Virus record (IMG/VR): IMGVR_UViG_2534681933_000011
Origin: a virus
Taxonomy: Duplodnaviria; Heunggongvirae; Uroviricota; Caudoviricetes
Strand: one strand, 5' to 3'
Length of the DNA stretch: 23,972 nt
The translations under genes and the position numbers were made by a program. Under the pieces are notes generated by a model. That model was given only the letters and a program-made list of their open reading frames with translations. It was not told where the DNA came from and searched no databases. Within the stretch, counting starts at the first letter, position 1; every line of letters begins with the position of its first letter. Below, piece after piece: positions 651-1,510 of the stretch.

Positions 651-899
651 TGTTTTGTTATGAAGGTGTTACTGGTAACATTAAGGTAATTTAACAAAGA
701 GTCAGTTCCGGACTTTATAGTGTGCTCAGTTCATGGCCAAAAACGATTTCTGTGATAAATATTTTGAATATTATTTACAGGTAAATGGAGTGGGGCGCAT
801 GGATAGAAATATTACAATAGAGTATGAAGTATATGCCCGTATTGTATGGGCAGAGAAGGCAAAAACACGGTAATTCCGTGTGTTGCCATGATACCTGAT

Positions 900-1100
900 T
901 GGCAGAATAGTTGTTTGGTTTTGAGTATATAGTCAGCGTTTTTTGTTCAGTAATTGCCCCCTCAAAAAATAATAAAATAAGGTGATTATTTTTGTTTATT
1001 ATTTAGTTTTTTTGTGTGTTATTTTATTGTTTTTGCGTGGTTTGTTTTTTATTGTTATTTCATTAAGGGAAGGTAAATTCAGGATGGCAGTCTGTAGATA
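900..1100. promoter_or_regulatory. AT-rich tract with phased T-runs upstream of the PerC-like gene; candidate curved-DNA promoter/silencing region
   Basis: About 200 bp of very low GC with repeated T4-T7 runs (ttttgtttattatttagtttttttgtgtgttattttattgtttttgcg...) ending at a GGAGG ribosome-binding site and the ATG at 1115. No convincing ORF inside. Confidence 0.35.
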
Positions 1101-1114
1101 ATCGGAGGTCACTT

Positions 1115-1429
1115 ATGCTACATGATCACGTGGCAGAATGTCTGGAGAAAAAAGGACTGTACCGGAGAGCAGCTGAACGATGGGCAAAAGTGATGGTACA
1201 GCTAAGTGATGACCAGAAAAGAAAAGTGGCGGCACAGAAACGAGCAGAGTGTTTGCGTAAGGCGCGCCGGACTCCGGTTTCACCGGTGAACCTGACCGAA
1301 ATAAAACAAGCGGTCAACAGACTACATTCTGAGTTGGGAATGGGATTTGAAGAGCGGCGGGTATTCCGACGATATAAAGGGACAGGAGAACAGAATACGT
1401 CCGGAAACGCGCGGTCAAAAAAATGCTAA
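1115..1429 (+). CDS. PerC-family transcriptional regulator homolog (Pch-like), 104 aa
   Basis: N-terminal motif AECLEKKGLYRRAAERWAKV matches the conserved PerC/Pch signature as I recall it; GGAGG ribosome-binding site 7 bp upstream; size matches Pch proteins; sits in the moron position between lysis and packaging genes. Confidence 0.6.
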   Translation: MLHDHVAECLEKKGLYRRAAERWAKVMVQLSDDQKRKVAAQKRAECLRKARRTPVSPVNLTEIKQAVNRLHSELGMGFEERRVFRRYKGTGEQNTSGNARSKKC

Positions 1430-1465
1430 AAAATATCTGAGAGAGTTATTGCCTGTTACCATAAG

Positions 1466-1493
1466 AAAAAGCGACTTTAGTGGTCGCTTTTTG
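1466..1493. terminator. Bidirectional intrinsic terminator between the convergent PerC-like and YlcI-like genes
   Basis: Hairpin aaagcgac-tttagtg-gtcgcttt flanked by an A-run on the left and a T-run on the right, so it reads as stem plus U-tract on both strands. Confidence 0.5.
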
Positions 1494-1510
1494 TGTCATA
1501 TATAAGTCGT

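Follow-up and report, generated by a model that had tools for sequence, protein, structure and literature searches.

A pchA cassette, apparently intact, in a decaying lambdoid prophage of an O55:H7-type Escherichia coli genome

Introduction

PchA, PchB and PchC are PerC-family proteins that activate the LEE1/ler promoter within LEE, the locus of enterocyte effacement, in Escherichia coli (PMC4764244, PMC5931665, PMC4456613). The activation of LEE1 by Pch is seen only where H-NS, StpA and Hha repress the promoter; Pch lowers H-NS occupancy at LEE1, an effect seen in vitro as well as in vivo, and at the other LEE promoters its action is cooperative with that of Ler (PMC4764244). As an example of such a gene in a prophage setting, we describe an open reading frame (ORF) for 104 amino acids at 1115-1429 (plus strand) of a 23,972-nucleotide stretch of viral DNA (Caudoviricetes; IMG/VR record IMGVR_UViG_2534681933_000011). 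The whole stretch is referred to below as the window, and positions are numbered from its first letter. An earlier note, made from the sequence alone, had called this gene a PerC/Pch-like regulator.

Several features of the pch genes are already well described. Each group 1 pch gene gives at least 4-fold activation of a ler::lacZ fusion in K-12 (PMC5931665). LEE expression and adherence also depend on Pch (PMC4764244, PMC5931665). The genes also receive signals from the host: pchA and pchB are activated by LrhA, pchA answers butyrate via Lrp (PMC4456613, PMC13012123, PMC7279287), and pchA responds to nitrogen status through NtrC/sigma-S (PMC10714755).

Three other systems are close enough to be useful for comparison. 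PerC, encoded by perABC on the EPEC adherence factor (EAF)-type plasmids of typical enteropathogenic E. coli (EPEC), belongs to the same Pfam family and has the same LEE1/ler target (PMC4764244, PMC4456613). Unlike Pch, EPEC PerC is shorter and is transcribed within the per operon rather than from an AT-rich region of its own. Ler, an H-NS-like protein encoded within LEE, acts with Pch and achieves the same outcome, the relief of H-NS silencing at AT-rich virulence promoters; however, Ler has an H-NS-type DNA-binding domain, whereas Pch has no recognisable DNA-binding fold (PMC4764244). Finally, bor of lambda and borD of DLP12 occupy the same slot as the gene described here, between the lysis cassette and the packaging genes, and are likewise host-phenotype genes carried as independent prophage units. 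The differences are that the bor product is unrelated (Bor is a lipoprotein), that bor lies on the opposite strand and that it lacks a long AT-rich control region.

Identification of the gene

On the sequence evidence, 1115-1429 is very probably an intact and functional copy of pchA, forming a self-contained cassette within a decaying lambdoid prophage of an O55:H7-type, LEE-positive E. coli. pchA is a well-known gene, and so the feature itself is already known. The parts of the cassette are as follows:

About 629-1600, no strand assigned: pch cassette (moron), delimited by homology breakpoints with K-12 DLP12
651-1114 (464 bp), plus strand: AT-rich regulatory/leader region of pch, 33.4% GC versus 55.7% for the whole window
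936-1075, plus strand: T-tract block, 140 bp, 25% GC and 52% T, the most AT-rich and most variable part
1104-1108, plus strand: Shine-Dalgarno sequence GGAGG, 6 nt 5' of the ATG, read from the sequence
1115-1429, plus strand: pch gene, 104 amino acids, identified as PchA (group 1 PerC homologue) from Pfam PerC and the Sakai comparison
1466-1492, no strand assigned: hairpin A5-GCGACU-loop-GGUCGC-T5, a probable bidirectional intrinsic terminator that folds on both strands

The profile search against the PerC family proposed in the earlier note was run, and the gene product matches Pfam PerC (PF06069) with an E-value of 3.8e-44 and 149.3 bits, the gathering score being 22.6 bits. Residues 1-89 of the protein are aligned with profile positions 1-89 of 90, that is, over the full length of the family. 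Thus, the 104-residue PerC-family homologue of the note is borne out; its ‘PerC-like’ label named the right family but missed the exact identity of the gene as textbook pchA.

That identity comes from comparison with the three Sakai proteins. There is no amino acid difference from Sakai PchA (ECs_1091; 100% identity), one difference from PchB (V6L) and two from PchC (V6L and V58M). The pchA, pchB and pchC coding sequences vary only at nucleotides 16, 172 and 183 (PMC5931665), and the codons behind V6L and V58M (6 and 58) contain the first two of these. At the DNA level, 1101-1400 is 100% identical to pchA, no difference from pchA is found between 1076 and the stop codon, and identity with the Sakai pchA locus across 601-1500 is 98-100%. 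The RefSeq label at the matching position is ‘PerC family transcriptional regulator’ (WP_001303878.1), and the exact protein sequence is found on at least 1000 contigs, with source names that include ‘PchABC family transcriptional regulator’.

The suggestion in the earlier note that a prophage-carried PerC/Pch protein links prophage carriage to host virulence regulation is correct, as published experiments on the identical protein demonstrate (PMC4764244, PMC5931665, PMC4456613).

More distant relatives were also considered. The PerC-family proteins encoded on E. coli plasmids are about 42-48% identical to Pch over residues 2-90; the nearest plasmid-borne gene of the family is presumably perC. 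A sub-threshold NCBIfam match of Pch residues 7-47 to the ANR family (small AraC negative regulators; E-value 0.046, 13.6 bits versus a cut-off of 32) may stem from shared helical, charged composition alone. The single-sequence AlphaFold model of Pch predicts four helices and a disordered tail at a predicted local distance difference test score (pLDDT) of 51, too poor for a fold search, and sequence search finds no relative of Pch in the PDB.

Cassette and genomic slot

The window starts in the 3' end of the lysozyme gene, which is followed by Rz. The features on either side of the cassette are:

183-650, plus strand: Rz, directly 5' of the pch cassette
403-588, plus strand: Rz1, an ORF embedded in Rz
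1511-1735, minus strand: YlcI/YnfO-family (DUF3950) gene, convergent with pch (Pfam DUF3950, E-value 9.7e-20; NCBIfam YlcI_YnfO_N, E-value 6.5e-9)
1777-2307: HNH endonuclease gene, start at 1777
From 2423: small terminase gene
From 2983: large terminase gene

When the window is compared by blastn with the DLP12 prophage of K-12, the alignment is limited to 1-628 (Rz, 86% identity) and 1601-1735 (ylcI, 88% identity). The gene order in DLP12 is rzpD/rzoD, borD, ybcV, ybcW, ylcI, nohD; the pch cassette stands in place of borD-ybcV-ybcW and therefore sits in the bor slot. The breakpoint with DLP12 ylcI is at 1601, within the ylcI-family gene, so that the 3' third of this gene (1511-1600) belongs to the cassette. 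These results agree with the earlier note, which had described a regulator moron between lysis and packaging genes at the site where lambda carries bor: Rz and Rz1 are on the 5' side, the ylcI-family, HNH and terminase genes are on the 3' side, and the same slot holds borD in DLP12.

A moron is expected to have sharp boundaries, to be present in some related phages and absent from others, and to deviate in base composition. The breakpoints with DLP12 are sharp, and in the Shiga toxin (Stx) phages listed among the matches the homology begins only at about 1601, with pch absent; two short unannotated ECO95 fragments (H26, H27) are the only exceptions. The GC content is 33.4% for 651-1114 and 49% for the gene, compared with 55.7% for the window.

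The three Sakai loci, pchA in prophage Sp4, pchB (ECs_2182) in Sp11 and pchC (ECs_2737) in Sp14, have the same layout of Rz, spacer and pch, the same terminator and homology downstream to about 1600-1750. The shared block runs from about 250 to 1600-1750 with 95-100% identity, and the Rz-to-pch spacer, 464 bp here, is 465, 463 and 464 bp long at pchA, pchB and pchC, respectively. What differs is the surroundings. In Sp11 and Sp14, pch lies beside lambda-type terminases, and in Sp4 it is part of an inverted block flanked by insertion sequences (IS); unlike these, the window cassette is found at the ompW/trp locus in a genome of O55:H7 type, and the packaging genes of its phage are of the HK97 type (HNH and the small and large terminase genes).

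AT-rich control region

The region 651-1114 shares 98-99% identity with its counterpart upstream of Sakai pchA, with four point differences in 651-935 and three in 936-1075. Of all 150-bp stretches in the 24 kb, the one beginning at 918 has the lowest GC content (24%), and the tracts of at least four bases within 919-1050 comprise seven of T and two of A. There is an AA/TT periodicity of about 11.25 bp that exceeds dinucleotide shuffles (1 of 300 shuffles reaches it). Curvature was calculated with a wedge-angle model with Bolshoy-Trifonov parameters. The mean for 651-1114 is 8.9 degrees per turn, in the top 1.4% of stretches of the same size; dinucleotide-preserving shuffles of the region give 8.3 +/- 0.8 degrees per turn, and 114 of 500 equal the real value. 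The ratio of end-to-end distance to contour length is 0.90, versus 0.81 for the shuffles, so a global bend is not predicted. Thus, the local curvature predicted by the model is that of any DNA of like composition, and no intrinsic curvature beyond composition is found. The earlier note had described this region as bent and AT-rich with phased T-tracts; the AT-richness, the tracts and the periodicity are present, but the curvature is not above that of shuffles.

These values bear on the possibility that the upstream DNA is intrinsically curved and H-NS-silenced, in which case pch itself would be xenogeneically silenced and would need an anti-silencing signal. In favour of it are the AT content of the region, the highest anywhere in the window (24-33% GC), and the AA/TT periodicity; the AT-richness is also kept in every copy despite the 26-29% divergence of the T-tract block. 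Furthermore, a PpchA-pchA-PLEE1-gfp sensor became butyrate-responsive only after deletion of hns, although with this construct the contributions of the pchA and LEE1 promoters cannot be told apart (PMC7279287). On the other hand, the modelled curvature is within the range of shuffles, and the high-affinity H-NS motif TCGATAAATT is not enriched: one site with two mismatches falls in the region (688-697), and 9 are counted in the whole window where chance alone would give 12. The reported regulators of pchA, LrhA and Lrp, are activators and could work with or without H-NS. We regard silencing of pch by H-NS as quite conceivable, while not leaning towards it.

Within the control region, the T-tract block (936-1075) behaves differently from its flanks. 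Its divergence from the window is 26% in pchB and 29% in strain A25, compared with at most 4% for the flanks, yet its GC content is 24-31% in all copies, a plasmid-borne paralogue included. This variability fits the ‘differential regulation’ published for pchA and pchB. The block could be a fast-evolving module in which composition rather than sequence is kept and which could set copy-specific regulation, for example, of the responses to LrhA or H-NS; separately, the conserved distal half of the region (651-935) may hold an unrecognised function. We offer both ideas as long shots, and no description of either was found in the accessible literature.

Other candidate elements in the control region were tried and rejected. 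None of the five phage-borne copies interrupts a 46-residue ORF at 733-873 (plus strand), which seems to be annotated as a hypothetical protein in one genome or more. As a gene it is discounted by its 11 substitutions, which are spread 4:4:3 over the codon positions and mostly change the amino acid, and it has no Pfam or NCBIfam match. A hairpin at 858-887 (GGCAAAAACACGG-TAATT-CCGTGTGTTGCC), in the middle of the region, folds stably, with a z-score of -4.1 for the plus strand and of -3.3 for the minus strand, where it is terminator-like. It is not a constrained element: pchB, pchC and strain A25 each have a different, uncompensated stem substitution. A small RNA (sRNA) of about 100 nt on the minus strand, with its start at a promoter-like site (998-969) and its end at this hairpin, is unsupported. 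In the supplements of PMC5286369, the coordinate prefixes of the three equivalent Sakai positions were unmatched in a crude text search, a result that does not prove absence. Rfam, scanned permissively over 1-3000, yielded no match, and the Esr41, AgvB, AsxR and STnc100 families are not in the control region.

Promoter, translation and terminator signals

A promoter consensus scan places one weak plus-strand site in the control region, at 883-911. A ‘native promoter PpchA’ has been used in a published construct (PMC7279287). The arrangement of Sakai Sp4 is informative here: its holin-lysozyme-Rz-pchA block has the opposite orientation to the Q antiterminator and terminase genes, so that pchA is cut off there from the Q-dependent late promoter, and yet this pchA is reported to be functional; a promoter inside the conserved block is therefore implied. 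The inverted Sp4 block lies between copies of IS629 and ISEc8 (L003 32131-39827), and its homology with the window stops at about 1590, at IS629.

A different source of transcription would be the phage itself. If pch were mainly a passenger of the late transcript, made by pR'-Q read-through over the lysis genes and over its own weak terminator, it would report prophage induction rather than host signals. The gene does lie directly 3' of holin-lysozyme-Rz on the same strand, and SOS induction with sulfamethoxazole-trimethoprim raised group 1 pch transcripts, pchC and pchB among them; for pchC the increase at 12 h was about 8-fold, and other prophage genes went up with it (PMC5931665, PMC6265319). 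However, pchA itself is not up in the same data (log2 fold change -0.33; PMC5931665), and LrhA, Lrp and NtrC are reported to control pchA in cells that were not induced (PMC4456613, PMC10714755). In addition, the Sp4 block is inverted relative to Q, yet LEE expression reportedly needs pchA even when there is no induction, and the 464-bp spacer accompanies pch in all 673 genomes that carry it (see below). We consider it unlikely that pch is mainly such a passenger.

Translation of pchA is also regulated. According to reviews of the work of Melson and Kendall (2019), an anti-Shine-Dalgarno element inside the pchA coding sequence pairs with the Shine-Dalgarno sequence and blocks translation, and when oxygen is low this block is lifted by the sRNA DicF (PMC7769764, PMC7873438, PMC9438474). 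The sequence from 1076 to the stop codon is that of pchA, and therefore both elements are present in the window copy. The minimum free energy fold pairs the Shine-Dalgarno sequence with codons 8-11 (about 1137-1145), with a stability that is not above that of shuffles. The duplex of DicF with pch mRNA scores -47.8, versus -37.9 +/- 3.7 for shuffles, but other sites in the window score better, and so this calculation is not discriminating.

On the 3' side, 36 bases separate the pch stop codon from the hairpin at 1466-1492. It folds at -17.3 kcal/mol (z -3.0) on the plus strand and at -12.3 kcal/mol (z -1.7) on the minus strand, and across 1430-1520 the phage-borne copies have only one difference, outside the hairpin. 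Lying between the convergent pch and ylcI-family genes, the hairpin is predicted to be a bidirectional terminator. The bidirectional terminator that the earlier note placed 3' of the gene is thus found as a structure on both strands, its role as a terminator being a prediction. A simple terminator scan overlooked this hairpin, probably because the A and T runs can lengthen the stem, although this is a guess.

Prophage background

With the window taken as a whole, its identity to a defective lambdoid prophage of E. coli O55:H7 strain CB9615 is 99.6%. In that strain, the prophage adjoins ompW/yciE/trpA, and its gene content includes paa, nleH1-2, nleF and a remnant of espO.

Lesions are found in several of the phage genes. 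Codon 21 of Rz is TGA (243-245, W21stop), whereas CB9615 has TGG, base 245 being A here and G there; besides 245, the first 2400 bases of the window differ from CB9615 only at 207 and 666. The Rz spanin is truncated, and the embedded Rz1 ORF (403-588) is still open. The HNH gene has a 10-bp deletion at about 2091 relative to O157:H7 FRIK944 and strain A25, which shifts the frame after residue 105 or so and gives a product of 176 instead of 121 amino acids; CB9615 has the same sequence, marked as a pseudogene in RefSeq. Runs of G/C at about 2141 and 2160 differ in length between strains.

A complete copy of the IS3-family element ISEc31 (1258 bp) is found at 4655-5912, just 3' of the large terminase stop codon, where it interrupts the start of the major capsid gene. 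In CB9615 the element is inserted 158 bp further downstream, and the 162-bp flanking segment is on the other side of it. A second ISEc31 copy, inverted and partial, is at 23109-23972 and runs off the right end of the window. The only Rfam match above the gathering score in the window is isrC (RF01387; 4723-4845, plus strand, 150 bits, E-value 5.5e-37); it falls within the 5' end of ISEc31 and is therefore IS sequence rather than an independent sRNA gene. At about 9695-10236, in the region of the portal gene that is annotated as frameshifted in CB9615, the window is similar to itself at an offset of 162 bp with 90-93% identity, which suggests a tandem repeat of about 54 codons.

Several observations weigh against 1115-1429 being a functional pchA copy in a self-contained cassette. 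The surrounding prophage is defective, with the Rz nonsense mutation, the HNH 10-bp deletion and the IS at the capsid gene, and for the near-identical prophage of CB9615 the annotation gives a frameshifted portal gene. Other pch copies are present in O55:H7 genomes, at three places in strain RM12579, so that redundancy is possible. The promoter scan gave no convincing sigma-70 site (2 sites versus 2.6 expected), and no report of H-NS binding at the region upstream of pch was found in the accessible literature.

Alternatively, the window copy could be a relic, redundant or silent, of a prophage that is dying, with no effect on the host phenotype. Besides the decay of the prophage, the median of three control-region copies in pch-positive genomes and the functional overlap of pchA, pchB and pchC (PMC5931665) speak for a relic. 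Against it, the coding sequence, Shine-Dalgarno sequence, proximal leader and terminator are intact while the neighbouring phage genes carry lesions, and the coding sequence is identical to that of pchA, a reported ler activator (PMC5931665). A relic therefore appears very unlikely to us, and a functional pchA copy is the reading that we retain; an intact cassette amid decayed neighbours fits selection acting on the cassette.

Distribution in complete genomes

The 464-bp control region is found in 673 of 5426 complete E. coli genomes, always at full length; the median copy number per genome is three. Genomes that hold at least 80% of window positions 600-1800 also number 673, and ler with the LEE1 promoter is found in 697 of the 5426. 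Among the matches listed, 7 of the 60 ler-positive records are also within the 80 distinct pch-positive records; the overlap expected for listed records is about 0.9 if the two were independent and about 7 if they always co-occurred. The pch cassette therefore travels with LEE. Group 1 Pch is thus found in LEE-positive genomes, both by the near-equal totals (673 and 697) and by the listed overlap. O55:H7 is itself a LEE-positive lineage (PMC2806823).

Proposed mechanism

By the published work on the identical protein, PchA from this cassette would bind the AT-rich LEE1 promoter DNA and displace the H-NS/StpA/Hha silencing complex. Next, ler would be transcribed, and Ler, helped by Pch, would turn on LEE type III secretion and non-LEE effectors. 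The inputs of the host to pchA would be LrhA, Lrp with butyrate, and NtrC/sigma-S; at the level of translation, the Shine-Dalgarno/anti-Shine-Dalgarno pairing would hold off expression, with relief by DicF at low oxygen.

For the window copy in particular, we infer a promoter somewhere in the AT-rich 464 bp, probably within the T-tract block or close beside it. H-NS may bind 651-1114 as well as its LEE target, and late-operon read-through after prophage induction could add to expression.

Significance

The link between prophages and LEE was established in 2004-2016 for this exact protein. What the window adds is only, first, a pchA-type allele whose prophage backbone is a different and decaying one, in a genome of O55:H7 type; second, a cassette and control region that are kept intact while the phage neighbours decay; and third, the T-tract block as the variable part between pch paralogues. 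These three additions (backbone, intact cassette and T-tract block) raise no new question. The Pch proteins are a prophage control link over LEE type III secretion in enterohaemorrhagic E. coli (EHEC) and atypical EPEC, and as such they matter for pathogenesis.

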